Below, in pieces: positions 2,262-33,717 of a stretch of 55,822 nt of DNA. Numbering within the stretch: position 1 is the stretch's first letter; every line of letters starts with the position of its first letter. The notes beneath the pieces are model-generated. The model ran no database searches and had not been told where the DNA came from. It worked only from the letters and a program-made list of their open reading frames with translations. The stretch covers positions 1 through 55,822 of the forward strand of contig CALJMB010000326.1 of assembly GCA_937982515.1 (NCBI GenBank). Direction: 5' to 3'. Made by a program: the position numbers and the translations under genes. This stretch comes from an uncultured Balneolaceae bacterium. GTDB lineage: Bacteria > Bacteroidota > Rhodothermia > Balneolales > Balneolaceae.

Positions 2262-4895
2262 TCAGTCCGCCCAGGCTTCGGCATCGCTGAATACCTCGGC
2301 AAACTCAATGGTTTCGCCATCCGGGCTGAGTGTGGCCTCGAACTCTGCCGGGCCTTCATCATCACGCTTGATTAAATGCGTAGCCAGTTTGTTGACGATC
2401 TGGGTCTGTATAAGGCGCTTCAGAGGCCGCGCACCATACACAGGATCGTATCCACGGACCGCCAGCCAGTCTTTTACGCCGTCGGTAATGTTCACTTTCA
2501 CACCGCGCTTTTCCAGCATCTGATCTACCCGCTTAAGCTGTATCTCCACAATCATACGGATGTGTTCTTTACTGAGCGGATGGAACACGATGATGTCATC
2601 CACCCGATTCAGAAACTCCGGCCGGATCGTTTTCCTGAGCTGATCCAGCAGCTTATCCTGCAGTTCATGGTACACTTCCTCGCTGAAGCGGCCACCCGTC
2701 TCCTCAATCTTATCCTGGATCAGGTGAGAGCCGATGTTGCTGGTCATAATGATGATGGTGTTGGTAAAGTTTACGGTAACACCTTTATTATCCGTCAGGC
2801 GGCCCTCATCCAGTACCTGCAGCAGGATGTTGAATACATCCGGGTGCGCCTTTTCAACCTCATCCAGCAGTACGACAGAATAGGGGTGGCGGCGTACAGC
2901 TTCGGTGAGCTGGCCGCCTTCCTCATAGCCTACATAGCCCGGAGGGGCACCGACCAGGCGGCTCACACTGTGGCGCTCCATGTATTCACTCATGTCTATG
3001 CGCACCATCGCGTGCTCGTCATCAAACAGAAAGTCGGCCAGTGAGCGCGCCAATTCCGTCTTACCCACGCCTGTTGAGCCGAGGAAGAAGAAGGAACCGA
3101 TGGGACGGTTTTCGTCCTGGAGTCCGGCACGCGCCCGGCGAACGGCGTTGGATACCGCTTCGATGGCTGCATCCTGGCCGATTACACGTTTGTGGAGCTC
3201 TTCTTCCAGCATAACCAGTTTCTGCCGCTCACTCTGCAACATCTTATGAACCGGCACACCCGTCCACCGCGATACAATATCAGCGATTTCTTCGGCTTCT
3301 ACCTCTTCCTTCAGCATGGCTCTGCCTTCCTGAATTTGGGCCAGCTTTTCGTTGGTCTCTTTCAGGTCATTTTCCAGTTGGATAATGGTACCGTAGCGGA
3401 GCTCGGCTACTTTTTCGTAGTTGCCTTCACGTTCCGCCTTCTCGGCCTCATTACGCGTGGTTTCAATGGCTTGCTTTAGTTCGCGCGTCTTCTGTATGAG
3501 GTCGCGTTCCATATTCCACTGAGCCCGCATGGAACTGCGCTGCTCCGTCAGGTCGGCCAGCTCCTTGTCTATACTTTGGATTTTGGCTTCTTCGTTTTCG
3601 CGCTTCAGTGCCTCACGTTCGATTTCCAGCTGGCGGATCTGCCGCTCTATACTGTCCAGCTCTTCCGGCATAGAATCGATTTCCAGCCGCAGCCGCGAGG
3701 CCGCTTCATCGATCAGGTCGATTGCTTTGTCAGGCAGGAAACGGTCTGAAATGTAGCGGTGCGAGAGCTCGGCGGCGGCTACTATAGCGCCGTCGGTAAT
3801 ACGCACCCCGTGGTGCAGCTCGTAGCGTTCCTGCAATCCACGCAGGATAGATACGGTATCCTCAACTGAGGGTTCTCCAATATATACGGTCTGGAGGCGA
3901 CGCTCCAGCGCTTTGTCTTTTTCAATATACTTGCGGTACTCGTTTGTTGTGGTGGCACCGATGGCGTGCAGCTCTCCCCGCGCCAGTGAAGGTTTAAGGA
4001 TATTGGCCGCATCCATAGCCCCTTCGCTGGCTCCGGCTCCAACCAGGGTGTGTATTTCGTCTATAAAGAGAATAATCTCTCCATTGGAGTCGTTAACTTC
4101 GTTGATTACCGCCTTGAGCCGTTCCTCAAACTCACCGCGGAATTTGGTACCGGCCATAAGGGCTCCCATGTCCAAAGCTACGATACGCTTGGTTTTGAGT
4201 CCTTCAGGCACATCGCCCCGGGTGATGCGAAGCGCCATACCCTCGGCAATAGCCGTTTTACCAACGCCGGGTTCACCAATAAGCACTGGGTTGTTCTTGG
4301 TACGGCGGGTGAGGATCTGCATGACCCGGCGTATTTCCTGATCGCGCCCGATTACCGGGTCCAGTCTGTTCTTCTCCGCCAGTTCATTCAGGTCACGCGC
4401 ATACTTTTTCAAGGCATTATAGCGGCTCTCGGCATTGGGATCGTCTACTTTCTGTGAGCCGCGCACATCCTGCAATACTTTAAGAATATCGTTCTTTTTA
4501 ATACCGTGCTGTTTCAGCAGTCTGGAAACTTCGCCTTTGGCCTCGATCATTCCGATGAGAATATGTTCGGAGCTGATATACTCATCGCCAAGCTCATCGG
4601 CCGCTTTCTGCGCACGATCGAAAAGCTCTTTCGAGTCGTTAGAAAGATACTGGCCCGATACGGAAGCGCCTTTAACTACCGGTAACTTGTCTTTAACCTG
4701 CTCAAGTTCGCTTCTCAACTGGGGGATATGCACTCCCAGCTTATTCAAAATTGTATTTACAATATTGTCCGCGTCAGAGAGCAGGGCCAGTAATATATGG
4801 GCAGGGTCTACCGCCTGATGATTATGGCCCGAAGCAATGTCCAGAGCTGACTGAATGGCCTCCTGTGCTTTTAATGTAAATTTATTGAGGTTCAT
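2262..4895 (-). CDS. clpB: ATP-dependent chaperone/disaggregase ClpB
   Basis: Two AAA+ modules with Walker A GEPGVGKT and GSTGVGKT, long coiled-coil middle domain, Clp N-domain. Start placed at internal [15 protein letters not shown] (Met28 of the 904-aa ORF), the typical ClpB N-terminus. Confidence 0.95.
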
Positions 4896-24894: not shown

Positions 24895-25848
24895 TTACGT
24901 CTTGTTAAAAAGGTGATTCATAACTTCTCCATACTTGCTGCCGTCATCGGGAAAGACGGTTACCACCGTTCCTTCTTCTAGTTCATCTGCCAGTTGCAGC
25001 GCGGCCGCGAGATTGGCTGCGGAAGAAGGGCTCAGTAATAAACCTTCTCTGGATGCAGCCAGCTTTATCGTTTCGTGTGCTGTTTCTGTACCGATACTCC
25101 TGATTTCATCCGGCAGGGTATCATCATATATACCCGGAACGAGGGCTGTTTCCAGGTGTTTCCAGCCTTCCAGTCCATGCATAGGCAGGTCGGGTTGAAG
25201 CGCTATGACACGTATATCCGGATCATATTCTTTGAGGCGCCTCCCCGTACCCACGACGGTTCCGGTAGTGCCCAGTCCCGCTATGAAGTGGGTGACACCG
25301 TACTCCGACTGCTCCAGTATTTCAGGGCCTGTGGTATCGTAGTGAGCTTTCCAGTTACTCTCATTTCCATACTGGTCGGCAAAGAAGTAGGTGTCGGGGT
25401 CATCTTCGAATAGTTGCCGCGCAATTTCCTGAGCCTCGTCGGTTGTACCTGTCATAGAAGTTAAACGGAGATCTACCCCTAACGCTCTTAAAATCCTTTT
25501 TCGTTCGTTTGTGGCGTTTTCAGGCAGGCATAGTGTAACCGGTATGCCCAGCGCCGCCCCGATGTGAGCGTATGCAATACCTGTGTTACCACTGCTGGCA
25601 TCCAGCAACCGTTTACCGGGAATCAGGGCGCCTTGATGAATGGCATCTTTGATAATTCGATACGCCGGGCGCGCCTTGACACTTCCGCCGAATTGCTGCC
25701 ATTCCAGTTTTGCAAATATACGTACCTTCTCATTGCGGTTGATATTAGTGACATGATAGAGAGGGGTACCTCCTATAAAGGGGGCCAGCCGATTGCTTTT
25801 AGCTGCCAGATTAGCCTCTGGATTTTTAATCAGATTAATAGTGTTCAT
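24895..25848 (-). CDS. cysM: PLP-dependent cysteine synthase, CysM/CysK family
   Basis: 317 aa; PLP lysine context GGSVKARPA; SSGNTGIA loop; first gene of the cysM-mec-cysO-moeZ string. Confidence 0.9.
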   Translation of the reverse strand: MNTINLIKNPEANLAAKSNRLAPFIGGTPLYHVTNINRNEKVRIFAKLEWQQFGGSVKARPAYRIIKDAIHQGALIPGKRLLDASSGNTGIAYAHIGAALGIPVTLCLPENATNERKRILRALGVDLRLTSMTGTTDEAQEIARQLFEDDPDTYFFADQYGNESNWKAHYDTTGPEILEQSEYGVTHFIAGLGTTGTVVGTGRRLKEYDPDIRVIALQPDLPMHGLEGWKHLETALVPGIYDDTLPDEIRSIGTETAHETIKLAASREGLLLSPSSAANLAAALQLADELEEGTVVTVFPDDGSKYGEVMNHLFNKT

Positions 25849-25955: not shown

Positions 25956-26039
25956 TTAACTACAACAACAGCAACAACACGCCGCACAGCAGCAGCGGTT
26001 GGAAGGAAAATAATTTAGTATGTTGGTTGCTGTTTTCAA
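25956..26039 (-). promoter_or_regulatory. Cys-codon-rich leader ORF (27 codons, TTG start) upstream of cysM: (M)KTATNILNYFPSNRCCCAACCCCCCS*
   Basis: Translated by hand from the minus strand; 9 Cys in the last 12 codons (TGC/TGT); stop TAA at 25956-25958; 108 nt upstream of the cysM ATG; aligns in register with the plus-strand leader. Confidence 0.65.
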
Positions 26040-26295
26040 TCTGTAATCGCTTTTAAGCCAGACCAGCCTGGCTATATGAAGTTAATAAAAACTGTGATTA
26101 ATCCAAGGCTAGATGCTGTAAAAAAGGTTTTTCGCCCTTTCGGCATAACCAGGGTTCGCTAAAAAGAGTTCAATTTGGAAAGGAATAATTTTTTTATAAT
26201 TTCTCTTGACATCAATCCTCAGAGTTTATAATCTGTTGGCGGTGCTGAAGAAACCGCTGGCACCAACGTTTTTCATTACACATTTAGTACTATTT

Positions 26296-26412
26296 ATGAG
26301 CTTTCTCAACAACATCCAAAACTTTTTCGTTGCATACATGTGCGCTTGTATGATGTGTATCTGTTGTTGTATGGATACCGTAAAAGGTAGTGGATGGAGC
26401 ATTCTCAAATAG
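26296..26412 (+). promoter_or_regulatory. Cys/Met-codon-rich leader ORF (38 codons, ATG start): MSFLNNIQNFFVAYMCACMMCICCCMDTVKGSGWSILK*
   Basis: 3' part of the 68-aa track ORF 26206..26412; 6 Cys + 4 Met in 12 consecutive codons (26338-26373); followed by antiterminator/terminator elements. Confidence 0.7.
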
Positions 26413-26434
26413 TATATTAAAGGATCTAACTCAA

Positions 26435-26469
26435 AGCCCACTACCTGATACAGGTGGCGGGCTTTTTTT
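26435..26469 (+). terminator. Attenuator terminator AGCCCACTACCT-GATAC-AGGTGGCGGGCT + T7
   Basis: 12-bp stem (one mismatch, one G-U) followed by TTTTTTT; the 5' arm can alternatively pair with GGTAGTGG at 26386-26393. Confidence 0.8.
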
Positions 26470-26559
26470 GTATCTGCGGAAGATCTCCCCCTCCTGTGTC
26501 AGCAAAAGGGCTTTGTGGAATTTTAACTAATCACCACTAAACACAAAGTCAAAACTATT

Positions 26560-27402
26560 ATGGCTGACGTAATAACCAATCAAAAAGTACTGGTAACGAC
26601 CGACTGGGCGGCCGAACATCTGAATGATGAAGGCATCCGGTTTGTGGAAGTCGATGTAAATACCAAATCTTATGACTCCGGGCACATACCGGGAGCTGTA
26701 GGCTGGAACTGGAAAAAAGAGTTGCAGGATCAGCTACGGCGAACCATCGCGTCGAAAGATGATTTCCAGCAATTGCTGAGTAAATCGGGTATCAGCAACG
26801 ATACAACCATTATCCTTTACGGCGATAACAACAACTGGTTTGCCGCCTGGGCCTATTGGCTTCTCAAATACTACGGCCACGAAGATGTGAGAATTCTGGA
26901 TGGCGGGCGGAAGAAGTGGGAAGCGGAAAACCGTGAGTTGACTACCGATGTCCCAGAAGTCAATACAGCAACATATACCATTGACAAAATAAAAGGTGAA
27001 TACCGTGCCTTCCGCGATGATATCGCCAGGAACCTTGAAAACAGTGCCTTCGGCCTGGTGGATGTGCGTTCTCCAGATGAATTCTCAGGCAAAATTCTGG
27101 CCCCCCCGGGACTGAATGAACTTTCCCAGCGTCCCGGGCATATTCCCGGTGCGGCAAATATCCCCTGGTCTCAGGCCGTGAATGAAGACGGCACTTTCAA
27201 GAGCAAGGAAGAGCTGAGAAAGCTGTATGAAGGTCACGGCATCACGCCAGACAAGGAGATCGTTGCTTACTGCCGGATCGGTGAGCGCTCTGCTCACTCC
27301 TGGTTTGTACTCAATGAGTTGCTGGAGTACCCGAATGTGCGTAACTATGACGGTTCCTGGACCGAATGGGGGAACCTCATTGATGCACCTATCGAGAGAT
27401 AG
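26560..27402 (+). CDS. Two-domain rhodanese (thiosulfate sulfurtransferase)
   Basis: 280 aa; active-site loop YCRIGERSAHSWFVL, resembling actinobacterial CysA/SseC-type thiosulfate sulfurtransferases. Confidence 0.85.
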   Translation: MADVITNQKVLVTTDWAAEHLNDEGIRFVEVDVNTKSYDSGHIPGAVGWNWKKELQDQLRRTIASKDDFQQLLSKSGISNDTTIILYGDNNNWFAAWAYWLLKYYGHEDVRILDGGRKKWEAENRELTTDVPEVNTATYTIDKIKGEYRAFRDDIARNLENSAFGLVDVRSPDEFSGKILAPPGLNELSQRPGHIPGAANIPWSQAVNEDGTFKSKEELRKLYEGHGITPDKEIVAYCRIGERSAHSWFVLNELLEYPNVRNYDGSWTEWGNLIDAPIER

Positions 27403-27437
27403 ATAACCTCAACCCAAAGAAAAAGCACACATTCCTT

Positions 27438-29117
27438 ATGGGATCGCGAGATAAGAAAAAAAGCAAAATCGAAATCATTAAGGAAGAAAGCGATTATCTG
27501 CGGGGCAGCCTTACAGAAGAAGTGGGAAACGACCTTTCCCACTTCAGTAAGGTTGCAATTCAGCTGCTTAAGTTCCACGGCACGTACCAGCAGGATGACC
27601 GCGATCTTCGCCAGGGCCGGGACAGGCATTGGATGTTTATGATCCGGGGCCGTCTGCCGGGAGGCAAGATGACAGCAGACCAATACCTGGCTATCGACAA
27701 AATTGCCGATCGCTATGCCGATGGCACGCTGCGCGTTACCACACGGCAGGCCTTTCAGCTGCATGGAGTGATCAAGGAGAATTTAAAGCAAACCATGCAG
27801 GATATTAACAAAGCTTTAGTTACCACACTGGGAGCCTGTGGCGATATCGTACGCAATGTCATGGCCACTCCCGCACCCGATATAGATGGCCGCCAGGCCC
27901 AAGTTCAGGCATTTGCCGATGAGCTTTCTGATACGCTGCTTCCCGCTTCCAATGCGTATCATGAGGTGTGGCTGGATGGTGAGAAAGTGTACTCGGGCAA
28001 AGAGGAGATCGTCGAAAACGAACCTCTATATGGCGATAGCTATCTTCCGAGGAAATTTAAAATCGGTGTCGCTCTGCCGGGAGATAACAGTATTGATGTA
28101 TATACCCAGGACATTGGGCTGGTAGCGCTTTTTGACGACGAGAATAACATAGAAGGTTTTAATGTCATTATAGGCGGTGGCATGGGAATGAACCACCGAA
28201 AGCCGGATACATTCCCCAGGCTTGGCGATCATTTGGGATATGTCTCCAAAGAGCAGGTAGTTTCTGCAGTAAAAGGCATTATTGAAATTCAGCGGGATTA
28301 CGGAAACCGCATCAACCGGAAGCGTGCACGTATGAAATACCTGGTGGATGAATGGGGAGTCGAAAAGTTTCACGATGAATTGGTAAAACGGACCGGTTTC
28401 GCGCTCCATCCCTTCCGTGAGCTGCCGGAGTTTGGCCTGGACCTTTACCTGGGCTGGAACCGGCAGTCAGATGGAAACTGGTTCCTGGGGCTTTCTATAG
28501 AAAACGGCCGCATCAAGAACGATGAAAACTTGCAGCTGAAAACTGGCCTCCGGGAGGTGGTGGAACAGTTTGGAGTGGGGGTTAGGCTGACCCCAAACCA
28601 GAATGTGTTATTGACAGATATCAAAGAAGAGGACAAAGCCGGCATATCGCAGATTCTAAGCAGCCATAATGTGCTCTTCGGAGAGGATCTTTCCAATCTG
28701 CTAAAATATTCAATGGCCTGCCCGGCAATGCCAACCTGTGGACTTGCAATTACAGAATCGGAACGGGTGCTGCCAGGGGTGATCCGGGAGCTGGAAGAAG
28801 TGATTCGTGAACTCGGGCTTGAAGAAGAAAAGATTTCGATTCGTATGTCTGGCTGCCCCAACGGCTGTTCCCGTCCTTATGTAGCCGACATTGGCTTTGT
28901 AGGAAGATCACTAAATAAATATACCATTTTTGTTGGCGGAGATCCTTCCGGAACCCGTCTGAATAAAGAATACAAAGATTTGGTATCGCTGGAAGATCTG
29001 GTTAAGGAAGTGCGCCCCCTGCTGGAACACTACAAAGAACACAGAGCAGAACAGGAATCCTTTGGCAATTTTTGGAACCGTACCGGGATCGGAGAAAACG
29101 GACAAATTCTAGTATGA
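27438..29117 (+). CDS. sir: Assimilatory sulfite reductase hemoprotein (siroheme/4Fe-4S), probably ferredoxin-dependent
   Basis: 559 aa; nitrite/sulfite reductase repeats; cluster-binding cysteines MACPAMPTCGLA and SGCPNGCSRP; no cysJ-like flavoprotein gene nearby but a ferredoxin gene in the cluster. Confidence 0.9.
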   Translation: MGSRDKKKSKIEIIKEESDYLRGSLTEEVGNDLSHFSKVAIQLLKFHGTYQQDDRDLRQGRDRHWMFMIRGRLPGGKMTADQYLAIDKIADRYADGTLRVTTRQAFQLHGVIKENLKQTMQDINKALVTTLGACGDIVRNVMATPAPDIDGRQAQVQAFADELSDTLLPASNAYHEVWLDGEKVYSGKEEIVENEPLYGDSYLPRKFKIGVALPGDNSIDVYTQDIGLVALFDDENNIEGFNVIIGGGMGMNHRKPDTFPRLGDHLGYVSKEQVVSAVKGIIEIQRDYGNRINRKRARMKYLVDEWGVEKFHDELVKRTGFALHPFRELPEFGLDLYLGWNRQSDGNWFLGLSIENGRIKNDENLQLKTGLREVVEQFGVGVRLTPNQNVLLTDIKEEDKAGISQILSSHNVLFGEDLSNLLKYSMACPAMPTCGLAITESERVLPGVIRELEEVIRELGLEEEKISIRMSGCPNGCSRPYVADIGFVGRSLNKYTIFVGGDPSGTRLNKEYKDLVSLEDLVKEVRPLLEHYKEHRAEQESFGNFWNRTGIGENGQILV

Positions 29118-29148
29118 AATTTCTCACATATTTTTAATCTTTCTGCCA

Positions 29149-29964
29149 ATGAATAATTTACAGGGCAGCCCCAAAGGCAAGGTGTATCTCGTTGGTGCGG
29201 GGCCCGGGGAACCGGAACTTATTACTTTGCGTGGTGCAAAGATTTTAAAAAAATCCGAAGTCGTTGTTTATGACCGTCTGGCAAATTCAGAGATATTAGC
29301 CATGACCCCGGAGCATTCCGAACATATATACGTTGGTAAAAAGCCGGGCCGGCCATCGGTGTCTCAACAGCAAATCAACCGTATCGTTATTTCAAAAGCA
29401 CAAGAAGGTAAAACTGTTGTTCGCTTAAAGGGTGGGGATCCGTTCATTTTCGGGCGCGGAGGCGAAGAATGTGAAGCTCTTCGGCGAGCCGGTATTTCTT
29501 ATGAGATTGTTCCAGGCCTTAGCAGTGTATTGGCGGCCCCCGCTTATGCAGGCATACCGCTGACTCACCGTAGATATGGCCGGTCGTTTACTGTTGTAAC
29601 GGGGCATACCGTTGCAGGATCGGATCATTTTGACAATTGGGAACATTTGGCGAATGCCGATACCTTGATTATCTTAATGGGCTTGAAAAACCTGGCAGTC
29701 ATTGCAAGTACTCTGGTACAACTTGGAAAAGAAGCGGATACGCCGGCTGCAGTCATTGAAAATGCCACTTATCAGCACCAGAGAACCATTATTGGCACCC
29801 TAAATGATATTGCTGAAAAGACGGATCACCTTTTACCCCCTGCTACGATTGTGGTGGGAGACCTGGTTTCTCTGAGTAACGATCTGGCCTGGTTTGGTAA
29901 TGATGAGGCTGAAAATCAGACAATTAAGCAGGATTCACAACTTTTTTCAAACTTTGCAGGATAA
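29149..29964 (+). CDS. cobA: Uroporphyrinogen-III C-methyltransferase (SUMT)
   Basis: 271 aa; VYLVGAGPGEPELITLRG and RLKGGDPFIFGRGGEE motifs. Confidence 0.9.
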   Translation: MNNLQGSPKGKVYLVGAGPGEPELITLRGAKILKKSEVVVYDRLANSEILAMTPEHSEHIYVGKKPGRPSVSQQQINRIVISKAQEGKTVVRLKGGDPFIFGRGGEECEALRRAGISYEIVPGLSSVLAAPAYAGIPLTHRRYGRSFTVVTGHTVAGSDHFDNWEHLANADTLIILMGLKNLAVIASTLVQLGKEADTPAAVIENATYQHQRTIIGTLNDIAEKTDHLLPPATIVVGDLVSLSNDLAWFGNDEAENQTIKQDSQLFSNFAG

Positions 29965-29979
29965 CTAATCTTTCGTCAC

Positions 29980-30747
29980 ATGCAAGATACCAACAAATCT
30001 GTACCAACAGATGAACAATGGCCTCCAGAGCTGTTTATTTCGCTAAACAGCCAGCTACAGGAGGCACATCCGGATGAAGTAATAGAATGGGGTTACAAAA
30101 CTTTTGGTTCAGATATGGTGCTCGGAACGGGTTTTGGCCCGTCGGGGATGTTGTTAATTCATCGCATCCAAAAACTGGGGCTGCCTGTTTCAATATTTTA
30201 CCTTGATACGCATTTATTATTCGAAGAAACATACAAACTGTGTGATATTCTGGAAGAACGATACAATGTAGATATCATTCGTGTGGCTACCGATCTCTCG
30301 CTGGAAGAACAGGCTGAGCAATATGGCGATGAACTGTGGGCTAAAGACCCCGATACATGCTGCCATATCAGAAAAGTATTGCCGCTGCGTAACTTCTTGT
30401 CCGATAAGAAAGCCTGGATAAGCGGAGTGCGGCGCAGCCAGTCCGAAACACGCAAGCAGACCCAGGTTATAGAGTGGGATCCTGCAAACGAAGTAATTAA
30501 AATTAATCCACTGGCCACCTGGACGGGAGAAGAAGTGTGGGACTATATCCACATCAATGAACTGCCATATAATCCACTGCACGACGAGGGTTATCCCAGC
30601 ATTGGGTGCATACCCTGTACACAACCGGTTCTTAACGGGGAAGACGAACGGGCCGGACGCTGGAGAGGATCGGATAAAATGGAATGTGGTATTCACGTAC
30701 CGACCCAGAATTTCCATAACGGTCTGAGCAACGGCGTAAAAAAATAG
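29980..30747 (+). CDS. cysH: Adenylyl-sulfate/PAPS reductase (thioredoxin-dependent); the Fe-S type motifs suggest APS reductase
   Basis: 255 aa; CC pair (DPDTCCHIRK), CxxC (GCIPCT) and C-terminal ECGIH motif. Confidence 0.9.
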   Translation: MQDTNKSVPTDEQWPPELFISLNSQLQEAHPDEVIEWGYKTFGSDMVLGTGFGPSGMLLIHRIQKLGLPVSIFYLDTHLLFEETYKLCDILEERYNVDIIRVATDLSLEEQAEQYGDELWAKDPDTCCHIRKVLPLRNFLSDKKAWISGVRRSQSETRKQTQVIEWDPANEVIKINPLATWTGEEVWDYIHINELPYNPLHDEGYPSIGCIPCTQPVLNGEDERAGRWRGSDKMECGIHVPTQNFHNGLSNGVKK

Positions 30748-30756
30748 TACAGGGCA

Positions 30757-31416
30757 ATGGAAGTCTTCCCAATCTATCTGAGCAAACTAGATACAAAAAA
30801 AACGGTACTGATAGGCGGTAACTATGAAGCCGAAGGTAAAGCGAAACAGTTACTCGATCGCAATGCCTTACTCACTGTGATTAGCCCGCAACTGACGACT
30901 AAACTGCATGCCTGGGCCGAAGAGGAACGCTTTAGCTGGATACGGAGGACGTATCGCAGAGGAGATCTGGAGGGTGCATTCATGGCCATAGTCGCAGAAT
31001 TTGAAGGAGATGTCAACAAACAAGTATACCGCGAGGCAGAAGAACTGGGAATTTTGGTAAATGTAATGGATGATATCCCTCATGCAAACTTTGCCTTTGG
31101 ATCTGTTGTTAAACAAGGGCTACTCACTTTATCCGTGTCAACCGGCGGGGCGGCTCCGGCTCTGGCTGTAAGGCTGCGCCAGCGGTTTGAGGAGGAGTTC
31201 GGGCCGGAATACGCCGTTTTTCTGGAGCTTATGCAAAAACTGAGGAAGCCTATGGCACACTATCATCCCGAATTTGAAATCCGCAAAAAGCTCTGGTATG
31301 AATTGATTGATTCTGAAATACTGAGCATGTTACGGCAAGGGAAAGTAGGCGAGGCTCATCTCAAAACAGCAGAGATTGTGGGAGAGCCGGTTCTGACAGA
31401 AGCATTGAAAACATGA
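30757..31416 (+). CDS. Precorrin-2 dehydrogenase / sirohydrochlorin ferrochelatase (CysG N-terminal-type, SirC/Met8-like)
   Basis: 219 aa; Rossmann-like N-terminus (VLIGGNYEAEGK); STGGAAPALAVRLRQ motif. Confidence 0.8.
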   Translation: MEVFPIYLSKLDTKKTVLIGGNYEAEGKAKQLLDRNALLTVISPQLTTKLHAWAEEERFSWIRRTYRRGDLEGAFMAIVAEFEGDVNKQVYREAEELGILVNVMDDIPHANFAFGSVVKQGLLTLSVSTGGAAPALAVRLRQRFEEEFGPEYAVFLELMQKLRKPMAHYHPEFEIRKKLWYELIDSEILSMLRQGKVGEAHLKTAEIVGEPVLTEALKT

Positions 31417-32117: not shown

Positions 32118-33287
32118 CTAGCTCTCCAGCGCTTGTTCCACATCCCCGATGATATCCTCTACGGCCTCAAGGCCCACAGCGATGCGGATGAGGCCCGGAG
32201 TGATGCTCACTTCTCTGCGCTCTTCATCCGACAGCTTGGAATGAGTAGTCGACGCCGGGTGTGTGGCAATGGAGCGGGTGTCTCCCAGATTGGCGGAAAG
32301 TGATATCATGGAGAGGTTATCCAGGAATTTTTTAGCCCTCTCATAACCGCCTTTAATGTTAAAAGTGACAACGCCACCGCCTGATCGCATCTGTTTCCGA
32401 GCCAGATCATATTGAGGATGGCTTTTCAGGAATGGATACTTCACCCACTCTACCTGGTCATGCGATTCCAGAAACGCGGCGAATTGCAGTGCGTTAGCGG
32501 AATGCTTTTCCATACGTACAGGCAGTGTTTCCAGGCTTTTGGAGAAGAGCCAGGCATTGAACGGGGAGAGTGAAGGGCCGGTATGTCGGGTAAAAAACCG
32601 AATCTCTTCTATATATCGAGCCTTACCTACAATAACGCCGCCGATGCCACGCCCTTGACCGTCGATAAACTTGGTGGCGGAATGAACCACAATATCGGCG
32701 CCATATTCCATTGGTTTCTGCAGATAAGGGGTGGCAAAGCAGTTATCGACGATGGTGATCAGGCCGTGTTTATTTGCCAGGCTACAGGCCCATTCCAGAT
32801 CGATAAGATCCAACCCCGGATTAGAGGGTGTTTCAAGAAAAATAATTTTCGTATTGTCCTGAATAAGTTGTTCCCAGGACTCAGGCTGGTCAATATTTAT
32901 ATACGAAAAGTCTATCCCCCATTTAGGGAATACAGAGCTCAAAATCTGATGGGTTGAACCAAAAATCGAACGGCAGGCTATGACATGATCTCCCTGTTCC
33001 AGCAAGGCTGCCATGCTGGAAAATACAGCGGCCATACCCGAGGCCGTAGAAATACCCGCTTCAGCCCCCTCCATCAGGCACATTTTAGCGACAAACTCAT
33101 CGGTGTTCGGATTGGAGTAGCGGCTGTAGATATTTCCATCCACTTCACTGGCAAACATCGCCCGTGCGTGCTCCGCGGAATCGAACACGAAGCTGGATGT
33201 CATAAAAAGAGGAGTGGAATGTTCTCGTTGCCCGGAGCGCCTGGTTTGTGTTCTGATTACCTGTGTTTTTGCCTGCTTATCTGGCAT
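32118..33287 (-). CDS. O-succinyl/O-acetyl-homoserine sulfhydrylase (Cys/Met-metabolism PLP enzyme, MetZ/MetY-like)
   Basis: Start placed at MPDKQAKTQ (Met39), which removes the overlap with osmC; PLP lysine context HSATKFIDGQG; SRYSNPNTDEF motif. Confidence 0.85.
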   Translation of the reverse strand: MPDKQAKTQVIRTQTRRSGQREHSTPLFMTSSFVFDSAEHARAMFASEVDGNIYSRYSNPNTDEFVAKMCLMEGAEAGISTASGMAAVFSSMAALLEQGDHVIACRSIFGSTHQILSSVFPKWGIDFSYINIDQPESWEQLIQDNTKIIFLETPSNPGLDLIDLEWACSLANKHGLITIVDNCFATPYLQKPMEYGADIVVHSATKFIDGQGRGIGGVIVGKARYIEEIRFFTRHTGPSLSPFNAWLFSKSLETLPVRMEKHSANALQFAAFLESHDQVEWVKYPFLKSHPQYDLARKQMRSGGGVVTFNIKGGYERAKKFLDNLSMISLSANLGDTRSIATHPASTTHSKLSDEERREVSITPGLIRIAVGLEAVEDIIGDVEQALES

Positions 33288-33297
33288 ATGGGTGGCC

Positions 33298-33717
33298 TCA
33301 GGATTTGTTGATGGAATAACTGTGAGTGATGACAGCTGTTTTTTCGAGTATCTTTGAAACGGAGCAATATTTACCCAGCGAAAGATCAATCGCGCGTTCA
33401 ACCTTTTTAGGGTCCAGGGTACCTTTTAAGTCGAAATGTATATGAATTTTCTCGAACTCAGAATAGGTGTCTTTTTTCACCCGGTCTCCATCCACAACGA
33501 CCTGCAGGGCGGTTAACTCCTGTTTCTGTTTTTTTAAGATGCCGATCACATCAATAGCACTGCAGCCTCCAACGCCGGCTAATAGAAGCTGCATAGGGCT
33601 AAATCCGCCTTCCAACCCTCCAATACTTCGGGTACCATCTATCCGAATGATTCCGCCTTCTTCATTTTTCGCCTCCATGTGCAGCTCTTCATCGAGCCGG
33701 TCAATTACTATGTGCAT
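33298..33717 (-). CDS. OsmC/Ohr-family peroxiredoxin-like protein
   Basis: 139 aa; two conserved Cys contexts (GGCSAIDV and GKYCSVS). Confidence 0.8.
   Translation of the reverse strand: MHIVIDRLDEELHMEAKNEEGGIIRIDGTRSIGGLEGGFSPMQLLLAGVGGCSAIDVIGILKKQKQELTALQVVVDGDRVKKDTYSEFEKIHIHFDLKGTLDPKKVERAIDLSLGKYCSVSKILEKTAVITHSYSINKS

Follow-up and report, generated by a model that had tools for sequence, protein, structure and literature searches.

A probable cysteine- and methionine-codon attenuator ahead of the sulfur-assimilation operon of an uncultured Balneolaceae bacterium

Organization of the locus

This study concerns a leader lying ahead of a sulfur-assimilation operon in an uncultured Balneolaceae bacterium, within a stretch of 55,822 nt that is referred to here, in its full length, as the window and whose plus strand is the operon side. 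The leader combines a 38-codon open reading frame (ORF), rich in Cys and Met codons, with an antiterminator and a terminator that share one RNA segment. We consider it likely that this arrangement is a ribosome-mediated transcription attenuator, which would couple the operon for rhodanese, sulfite reductase, sirohaem synthesis and phosphoadenylyl sulfate (PAPS) reductase to charged tRNA-Cys, and probably to charged tRNA-Met. The leader and the operon comprise the following features.

26206-26232, plus strand: promoter-like element read from the sequence, TTGACA at 26206-26211 and TATAAT at 26227-26232, with a 15-nt spacer
26296-26412, plus strand: leader ORF from ATG 26296 to TAG 26410-26412, 38 codons and a stop, encoding MSFLNNIQNFFVAYMCACMMCICCCMDTVKGSGWSILK
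about 26300-26329 (codons 2-12), plus strand: segment 1, 5' arm of the 1:2 anti-antiterminator or pause hairpin, from minimum-free-energy (MFE) structures and duplex analysis
26338-26373, plus strand: regulatory codon run MCACMMCICCCM, codons 15-26
26382-26399, plus strand: segment 2, core AGGTAGTGG at 26385-26393, pairing with segment 1 or with segment 3 (antiterminator)
26433-26447, plus strand: segment 3, the terminator 5' arm AAAGCCCACTACCTG, whose CCACTACCT at 26438-26446 also pairs with segment 2
26451-26469, plus strand: segment 4, the terminator 3' arm CAGGTGGCGGGCTTT at 26451-26465, plus the T7 tract at 26463-26469
26511-26548, plus strand: inverted repeat CTTTGTG (26511-26517) ... 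CACAAAG (26542-26548), past the terminator and ahead of the rhodanese ATG
26560-31416, plus strand: the operon presumed to be controlled, as a whole, five genes
26560-27402, plus strand: two-domain rhodanese-type sulfurtransferase (Pfam)
27438-29117, plus strand: ferredoxin-type sulfite reductase (Pfam)
29149-29964, plus strand: uroporphyrinogen-III methyltransferase (Pfam)
29980-30747, plus strand: PAPS/adenylyl sulfate (APS) reductase (Pfam)
30757-31416, plus strand: sirohaem synthase, NAD-binding type (Pfam)

The leader ORF and its codon run had been described in a first-pass annotation of this DNA, and both were found exactly where they had been placed, with 6 Cys and 4 Met codons among 12 consecutive codons, against a background, over the window's long ORFs, of 0.9% Cys and 2.3% Met codons. 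In a six-frame translation of the window, at least six Cys in 12 codons were observed at just two sites, both in the same intergenic region, the second of them on the opposite strand. No Shine-Dalgarno sequence was detected before the leader ATG, and none before the rhodanese, sir, cobA and cysH genes either; as its absence is the norm for genes here, it says nothing against translation of the leader ORF. A 68-codon ORF reading from TTG 26206 was rejected, as this TTG coincides with the conserved -35 box. With the extended ORF as query, a protein database of 5.8 billion clusters returned a single 73-aa match for the leader peptide. The peptide belongs to no annotated protein family, and protein databases contain next to no ORFs of this kind.

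The complementarity between GGTAGTGG (26386-26393) and CCACTACC (26438-26445), which had also been proposed at the first pass, is real and extends to 9 bp of perfect pairing, between AGGTAGTGG at 26385-26393 and CCACTACCT at 26438-26446. The 12-bp hairpin AGCCCACTACCT/AGGTGGCGGGCT reported there is likewise present, though it is imperfect, with one A.C mismatch and one G.U wobble. Together with the flanking A:U pairs, the terminator stem comprises 15 positions (26433-26447 with 26451-26465) around the loop ATA, and its T7 tract lies 91 nt ahead of the rhodanese ATG at 26560, in agreement with the distance of about 90 nt first given. Segment 3 is common to the 2:3 antiterminator and the 3:4 terminator, and the two pairings are mutually exclusive. 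The terminator hairpin dominates every unconstrained fold and on its own folds at -21.2 kcal/mol; the leader RNA is strongly structured (z -3.15), and the combined pattern of segments 2, 3 and 4 occurs once in the window, as compared with 0.00 occurrences in 100 shuffles.

With reference to the promoter-like element, the -35 TTGA does not vary and an A/T-rich -10 aligns across 12 orthologues, while an alternative -10, TAATCT at 26229-26234, would give a 17-nt spacer. A consensus promoter scan of the window did not list the element, owing to its 15-nt spacer. On the basis of the conserved -35 and -10 boxes, transcription is predicted to start at about 26239-26245, some 50 nt 5' of the leader ATG. 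Just past this predicted start, in the 5' untranslated region (UTR) of the leader, a hairpin GGTGCTG...CTGGCACC followed by T5 (26241-26273, plus strand) was noticed within an insertion that the orthologues do not have. Inspection of the alignment revealed no conserved sigma-70-like promoter between the terminator and the rhodanese gene.

The operon keeps the same gene order in eight related loci (L081-L088), and its rhodanese shares about 78-85% identity with its counterparts in Gracilimonas, Fodinibius, Rhodohalobacter, Aliifodinibius and many Balneolaceae metagenome-assembled genomes (MAGs). In two other loci (L089 and L090, at 2700-3900) the leader precedes the rhodanese gene alone, which makes that gene the conserved partner of the leader. 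The first-pass annotation had placed the leader upstream of a sulfite-reduction operon; a sulfur-assimilation operon does follow, but the conserved adjoining gene is rhodanese and not sulfite reductase. The next gene in L089 and L090 is a convergent gene of the isopropylmalate/isocitrate dehydrogenase family rather than sulfite reductase. Beyond the operon, the window carries a Cys/Met-metabolism enzyme of the pyridoxal phosphate (PLP) type at 32118-33401 (Pfam).

Conservation of the leader in Balneolaceae

Through the rhodanese protein, 11 orthologous Balneolaceae loci were found, by one genome scan and eight look-ups of exact proteins; the scan of genome contigs with this protein gave, among the matches listed, at least 79 loci of other phyla and one of Balneolaceae. 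A search of metagenomes with a pattern built on segments 2-4 matched 54 stretches, and the total came to 18 distinct full-length leaders. Seven of these 18 sequences were retrieved with the pattern, which fixes much of segments 2-4, and the 11 protein-found loci are free of this bias.

All 11 protein-found loci harbor a Cys/Met-rich short ORF, a GGTAGTGG-type segment and a terminator of the form AGCCCRCTRYC...GGGCTTT upstream of the rhodanese gene. The element is present in cultured relatives, among them Gracilimonas mengyeensis DSM 21985 (L001), Fodinibius roseus (L082) and a Rhodohalobacter sp. The pattern of segments 2-4 matches each of them and none of the 79 rhodanese loci from other phyla among the matches listed; eight of those 79 display a Cys-rich short frame upstream, with no consistency between them. 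Conservation covers the start-codon column, the Cys/Met run, segment 2 and the terminator, while the peptide sequence drifts, with identities of just 22-51%. The leader ORFs span 32-39 codons in all 18 sequences, counting the GTG and TTG starts of L110 and L123, and the start-codon column is aligned throughout (ATG, with GTG once and TTG once); the reading frame is open in 18/18, the alignment gap sizes balancing to keep it. Per 12 codons, the run of every orthologue contains 3-6 Cys and 2-6 Met, with means of 4.8 and 4.1. TGT and TGC interchange among the Cys codons, and the sequence in which Cys and Met follow one another drifts, so that composition alone is kept. Cys and Met codons are conserved to the same degree, and the sensor is therefore probably bivalent, reading both amino acids.

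The motif G[AG]TAG[CT]GG of segment 2 is found in 18/18 sequences and is read as G/D-S-G in 13 of them and as V-V-D/E in the other five. Its nucleotides are thus kept in two reading frames, which indicates that the constraint acts on the RNA. On the 18-sequence alignment, 95.2% of the terminator cells are paired as compared with 37-58% for slid controls, and the corresponding values for the 2:3 antiterminator are 96.9% and 25-58%. Terminator pair 202:221 is AU in 10, GC in 4 and GU in 3 sequences, and antiterminator pair 140:206 is GC in 14, AU in 3 and GU in 1; the A.C combination was met at 140:206 in none of the 18, though the search pattern permitted it. Compensatory changes in 2:3 and 3:4 are few yet consistent, among them a triple change in L081 across the three copies (GATAGCGG / CCGCTATC / GATAGCGG). 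The terminators of the orthologues fold at -21 to -26 kcal/mol and carry a T6-7 tract in most cases. Aligning the orthologous intergenic regions, a check that the first-pass annotation had proposed, therefore found the ORF and the Cys run kept, together with compensatory changes in both pairings. The spacing of the elements is conserved as well, as described below.

Taken together, the codon enrichment, the single occurrence of the pattern against the shuffles and the conservation in 18 sequences exclude a chance origin of this arrangement; a run of Cys and Met codons stands upstream of a sulfur-assimilation operon and is kept in all 18.

The inverted repeat between the terminator and the rhodanese gene ends 12 nt before the ATG and is found in most orthologues, with the consensus GCTTTGTG-N25-35-CACAAAGC; L082 displays the compensatory variant GCTTTGTT/AACAAAGC. 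RNAalifold on the MAFFT alignment returned no structure for this repeat.

Segment 1 and the folding of the leader RNA

The core helices of segment 1 are CAUCCA (26313-26318) and ACUUUUU (26321-26327). Folded up to segment 3, the RNA of nearly all the sequences adopts an MFE structure that joins segment 2, flanks included, to ORF codons of about 4-13 and leaves the Cys/Met codons in the apical part of the 1:2 hairpin. Since RNAalifold on the MAFFT alignment missed the 1:2 pairing, it was tested without an alignment, and it was found to be stronger than in dinucleotide shuffles in 16/18 sequences (mean z -3.4). Its flanks covary, as in CUUCUG/CAGAAG, UUCUCG/CGAGAA, UUUUCCGCG/CGCGAAAG and UCUCGGCG/UGCCGGGAG; on the MAFFT alignment the 1:2 helix is paired in just 72.6%. 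About half of the sequences show a further pairing, between the regions of the start and stop codons. With its conserved pairing to segment 2, segment 1 is a fourth element, absent from the first-pass annotation, and completes a four-segment anatomy in the predicted folds.

In 10/18 sequences, 18 nt separate the last Cys codon of the run from segment 2 (range 9-20), and in the 18 sequences the stop codon stands 7-22 nt past segment 2 and 20-36 nt ahead of segment 3. With a ribosome footprint taken as about -15 to +12 around the A-site codon, a ribosome stalled anywhere in the run would end short of segment 2 and would separate segments 1 and 2. We modelled the stalled ribosome as an insulator between the upstream and downstream RNA and folded only the downstream RNA. 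In the free full-length RNA, the terminator formed with P = 1.00 in 18/18 sequences; with a ribosome stalled on the last Cys, the RNA past it formed the 2:3 pairing with P >= 0.83 in 17/18. The antiterminator proposed at the first pass is thus competitive in folding once a stalled ribosome is modelled.

The same annotation had a ribosome at the stop codon masking segment 2. This would apply to orthologues whose stop lies 7-11 nt past segment 2; in the window, where the spacing is 16 nt, a ribosome at the stop would abut segment 2, and in the model it would block 2:3 by occupying the would-be loop.

The divergent operon and its poly-Cys leader

The second Cys-rich site of the intergenic region belongs to a companion leader of a divergent operon.

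25956-26039, minus strand: companion leader ORF MKTATNILNYFPSNRCCCAACCCCCCS, starting at TTG, with Cys at 9 of its last 12 sense codons

This ORF lies 107 nt upstream of a CysM-like operon on the minus strand, which consists of a CysM-like PLP enzyme (24895-25848), a JAB/Mec-type protease, a ThiS-like ORF and a ThiF-rhodanese fusion, and is a cluster of the CysO/CysM type of cysteine synthesis. Ten distinct Balneolaceae sequences keep the companion leader. All of them share the tract TGTTGTTGCTGTTG unchanged, and 9/10 are identical over the whole 18 nt of TGTTGTTGCTGTTGTTGT; the start, an in-frame TTG/GTG or ATG, is conserved. Directly 3' of the stop codon, a conserved hairpin is formed by GTTACCG (25955-25949) with CGGTAAC (25923-25917); a clear canonical terminator was not found after the companion leader in most orthologues. 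We also considered sequestration of the cysM initiation region by the minus-strand poly-Cys tract, and found it unsupported, as only 3/10 sequences exceeded the shuffles and 7/10 were no better.

The run of the companion leader holds 8-10 Cys and 0-1 Met per 12 codons, as compared with 4.8 and 4.1 in the rhodanese leader. Sulfide from the plus-strand operon can feed both Cys and Met, whereas CysM makes cysteine only. Codon composition therefore goes with the branch of the pathway, a correspondence that would be difficult to account for if the codons did not act as the sensor.

Leaders in other lineages

Approximately three-quarters of the 54 metagenome matches (L091-L144) precede genes for rhodanese, amino-acid biosynthesis, tRNA synthetases or sulfite reductase. 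The matches to the segment pattern are thus mostly attenuator-like leaders, with an unclassified remainder, which suggests a cheap way to find more of them. They include stretches that carry the core GRTAGYGG ... AGCCCRCTRYC ... GGGCTTT with other regulatory codons (such as L117:5585-5662, L096, L116, L097 and L131): W-rich leaders before trpE, with one protein cluster named Zixibacteria, a Y-rich leader before chorismate mutase, a T/I-rich leader before homoserine dehydrogenase, an A-rich leader before alaS and LLL before leuS. Common descent of the GRTAGYGG core in these Trp, Tyr, Thr, Ala and Leu attenuators was not adopted as an explanation, for the reading frame of the core differs among them. 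The core shared with the non-Cys attenuators is most likely a coincidence, on a rough estimate by which about 1 in 10^4 attenuators would carry it by chance, given how many attenuators 241 million contigs must contain.

Three further kinds of Cys-codon leader with a terminator/antiterminator were noticed before NIR_SIR-family genes, in L126 (also L091 and L103), L104 and L095; examples are ...ATCRATVCICTCPCNSMGPIVG..., ...VAACMCCRR... and MKDIFPHYCMICFMCCCDFCCSF..., and the protein cluster of L126 is named Blastocatellia. Two Acidobacteria MAGs, L037 and L047 (upstream of 4001), display Cys-rich short frames before rhodanese homologues (...CCQRSRCCCACC..., ...CCSACGAGCCCVCC...), and L108 carries on its minus strand, at about 1274 in the reverse orientation, a poly-Cys ORF MTITPTNVCCCCCGGPTPAGSCCCGCC... 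on a GC-rich contig. The Cys-rich frames of L037, L047 and L108 may be further Cys leaders.

Discussion

The geometry of trp/his-type attenuation, to which the first-pass annotation had likened this leader, is supported by the conservation of the elements, by compensatory change, by the folding analysis, by the lack of any riboswitch or T-box match among the Rfam models searched (see below), and by the sulfur operon downstream. We therefore propose the following course of events. Transcription would begin about 50 nt upstream of the leader ATG, and the nascent RNA would first fold into the 1:2 hairpin, in which codons 2-12 pair around GGUAGUGG and the Cys/Met codons are apical, until a translating ribosome opens it. 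When Cys-tRNA or Met-tRNA is scarce, the ribosome would stall within 26338-26373, its leading edge at least 6 nt short of segment 2 and its body keeping segment 1 apart from segment 2; segment 2 would then pair with segment 3 as soon as the latter is made, no terminator would form, and RNA polymerase would read into the operon. When both tRNAs are charged, the ribosome would cross segment 2 to the stop codon at 26410, where it would fill the would-be 2:3 loop, or, after its release, the 1:2 hairpin would reform. In either case segment 3 would pair with segment 4, and transcription would end at the T7 tract, at about 26469. As judged from the sequence, this marine or saline bacterium most likely turns its sulfur-assimilation genes on only when Cys and Met run short.

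Several observations weigh against this interpretation. Translation of the leader, stalling of the ribosome, conditional termination and the physiological response are steps that we infer from the sequence. A naive equilibrium model, which merely forbids the bases covered by the ribosome, gave mixed and inconsistent values of P(2:3), and the clean switch appeared only when the ribosome was treated as an insulator. In the window itself, a ribosome at the stop codon would extend over about 26395-26422 and, with the 16-nt spacing, would abut segment 2 without covering it. RNAalifold on the 18-sequence MAFFT alignment recovered the terminator alone. Because 7/18 sequences were retrieved with the pattern, the covariation counts on segments 2-4, which are modest, are partly constrained by the search. 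Besides, the T tract is weak in L089 and L090 (GGGCTTTGCTATTTG), and the best -10 hexamer of the promoter-like element sits at a 15-nt spacer.

A different reading retains stalling on the Cys/Met codons as the sensor and places control in translation or mRNA stability; a short transcript would then end constitutively at the hairpin and T tract, or these would terminate transcription only in part. Ms5788A, the one Cys leader ORF that has been dissected by experiment, does act on translation (bioRxiv 10.1101/834739), a conserved inverted repeat stands just ahead of the rhodanese start codon, and the cysM companion leader is without a clear canonical terminator in most orthologues. The rhodanese leader, however, has a strong, canonical, intrinsic terminator in its orthologues (-21 to -26 kcal/mol, with T6-7 in most), which overlaps exactly with the conserved alternative 2:3 pairing. 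At about 90 nt from the rhodanese start codon, this terminator cannot occlude it, and no pairing of the leader with the rhodanese initiation region was seen. We therefore regard control at the level of translation or stability as improbable.

Two further explanations give the ORF a different role or none. The leader might encode a functional Cys/Met-rich micropeptide, metal-binding or redox-active for instance, with its own promoter and terminator and merely located beside the sulfur genes. An ORF of 32-39 codons in all orthologues, with recurrent N-terminal N-x-I-x-N and G-S-G motifs, would agree with this. Both motifs, though, coincide with RNA segments 1 and 2, the segment 2 nucleotides are kept even where the frame gives VVD or VVE, and what is conserved in the run is composition and not the order of Cys and Met; one match among 5.8 billion clusters is hardly the record of a protein family, and the mutual exclusivity of 2:3 and 3:4 would be left unexplained, which makes the micropeptide very unlikely. 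The chances are slimmer still for a riboregulator or small RNA of the riboswitch kind, controlled by a metabolite or a protein, with an incidental and untranslated ORF. The strong structure of the leader RNA (z -3.15) and the missing Shine-Dalgarno before the leader ATG fit such an element, yet genes without Shine-Dalgarno are the norm here and no Rfam family was matched in the window or in 13 related loci. The frame is open in 18/18 sequences, with an aligned start codon, frame-balanced gaps and interchange of TGT and TGC, and the most variable nucleotides fall exactly where an aptamer would be conserved.

If transcription attenuation by a Cys/Met leader is indeed at work, the classical mechanism would extend to sulfur metabolism and to the Fibrobacteres-Chlorobi-Bacteroidetes (FCB) superphylum, where initiation goes without Shine-Dalgarno sequences. 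The two neighbouring leaders would also provide a natural test of codon-composition tuning, with Cys and Met on one operon and Cys only on its divergent neighbour. More tentatively, and with somewhat less than even confidence, we suggest that the two operons form a 'sulfur ribulon', in which the codon composition of each leader is tuned to its branch: a Cys and Met terminator switch for sulfide production by rhodanese-sir-cobA-cysH, and a poly-Cys sensor for CysO/CysM. On this suggestion, no classical attenuator family of the terminator type would precede the Balneolaceae leaders in sulfur assimilation, and no leader peptide before them in reading the charging of Met-tRNA; the Cys leaders before sulfite-reductase genes in Blastocatellia and two other uncultured lineages would make them part of a widespread unannotated class. 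Such leaders are unannotated, with no Rfam match and a near absence from protein databases, and the pattern in which segment 2 repeats segment 4 suggests a cheap search route to them.

Comparison with known systems

Rfam, the search of which the first-pass annotation had recommended, was run with its covariance models at the gathering score and returned no family in the window or the 13 related loci, including riboswitch, T-box and leader families; among the leader families Trp_leader came closest, with 14.4 bits where 41 are required (E = 6.3). The leader peptides trpL, hisL, leuL, thrL, ilvL and pheL carry codons of the end product and four segments with exclusive 1:2, 2:3 and 3:4 pairings. 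The Balneolaceae element resembles them in having a short ORF rich in codons for the end products of the pathway, four segments with exclusive pairings, an intrinsic terminator before the first gene and regulatory codons about 15-18 nt ahead of segment 2. Its probable multivalent sensing, of Cys and Met, recalls that of thr (Thr and Ile) and ilv (Ile, Leu and Val). It differs from the classical attenuators in its amino acids, Cys and Met, and its pathway, sulfate/thiosulfate assimilation, in placing the regulatory codons in the loop between segments 1 and 2 and not inside segment 1, and in having its stop codon downstream of segment 2; unlike the enterobacterial examples, its host belongs to the Balneolaceae, of the FCB group, with genes that go without Shine-Dalgarno sequences. 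Sequence similarity to the classical leaders is absent, Trp_leader remaining below threshold. To our knowledge, Cys and Met are missing from the textbook list of amino acids under leader-peptide transcription attenuation.

S-box riboswitches, which sense S-adenosylmethionine (SAM), and T-box leaders of Cys/Met genes in Firmicutes act by premature termination in response to SAM or uncharged tRNA. Premature termination at sulfur amino-acid genes would be shared with the Balneolaceae leader; the sensor differs, and no S-box or T-box motif was detected here.

For cysteine, the first-pass annotation had supposed that only sparse computational predictions exist, a statement corrected by experiments in mycobacteria (bioRxiv 10.1101/834739) and by a prediction for cysS in Rhodobacterales (PMC8632094). 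The latter concerns the uORFC-8-2 motif ahead of cysS, predicted to be a ribosome-mediated attenuator that combines a Cys-codon upstream ORF (uORF) and an intrinsic terminator with a U run (PMC8632094), and the Balneolaceae leader shares with it the conserved Cys codons and the intrinsic terminator stem. The uORFC-8-2 motif, found in alpha-proteobacteria, controls cysteinyl-tRNA synthetase and not biosynthesis; its only Cys codons are two in tandem (at positions of about 14-15) inside the first of two stems, with no Met (PMC8632094). As described, it is set apart from the Balneolaceae run of 4-8 Cys and 2-6 Met codons between segments 1 and 2, and downstream of the latter stands a rhodanese gene or the sulfite-reductase operon. 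In Actinobacteria, the candidate Cys leader peptides of Seliverstov et al. (2005) have Cys runs near the stop codon, upstream of cys operons, and were reported without terminators, Rho-dependence being suggested (PMC1262725). They resemble the minus-strand poly-Cys leader of the window, while the plus-strand element differs from them by its complete intrinsic terminator switch. In the literature library that we searched, there was no paper on Balneolaceae and none joining Met codons, a leader peptide and transcription attenuation; the 2010 survey of Lopatovskaya et al., as cited in PMC4833913, may hold related predictions.

A functional parallel is found in mycobacteria, where the polycysteine leaderless ORFs Ms5788A / Rv0815A are cysteine-responsive translational attenuators (Canestrari et al. 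2020; bioRxiv 10.1101/834739), and stalling on the Cys codons of the unannotated upstream ORF de-represses cysteine-related operons, one of which includes the rhodanese-type thiosulfate sulfurtransferase cysA2 (bioRxiv 10.1101/834739). The mycobacterial 'ribulon', in which several loci are controlled in parallel, is matched here by two divergent operons with a leader each. The dissected mycobacterial ORF is leaderless, sequesters the Shine-Dalgarno of the next gene and has no intrinsic terminator (bioRxiv 10.1101/834739). The Balneolaceae element, in contrast, has Met codons, a terminator/antiterminator pair and a predicted 5' UTR of about 50 nt, its conserved -35 and -10 boxes appearing to end about 60 nt upstream of the ATG, which argues against a leaderless mRNA; and instead of sequestration the plus-strand leader displays a terminator 90 nt from the start codon. 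If the interpretation holds, the rhodanese gene would belong to the core of cysteine synthesis in these bacteria and be regulated together with it, like the mycobacterial cysA2. In summary, the Balneolaceae leader is an uncatalogued family inside a known mechanistic kind and not a new mechanism, and it is moderately novel in its sulfur-assimilation target, its bivalent Cys and Met codons and its codon-tuned twin leader on the divergent operon.

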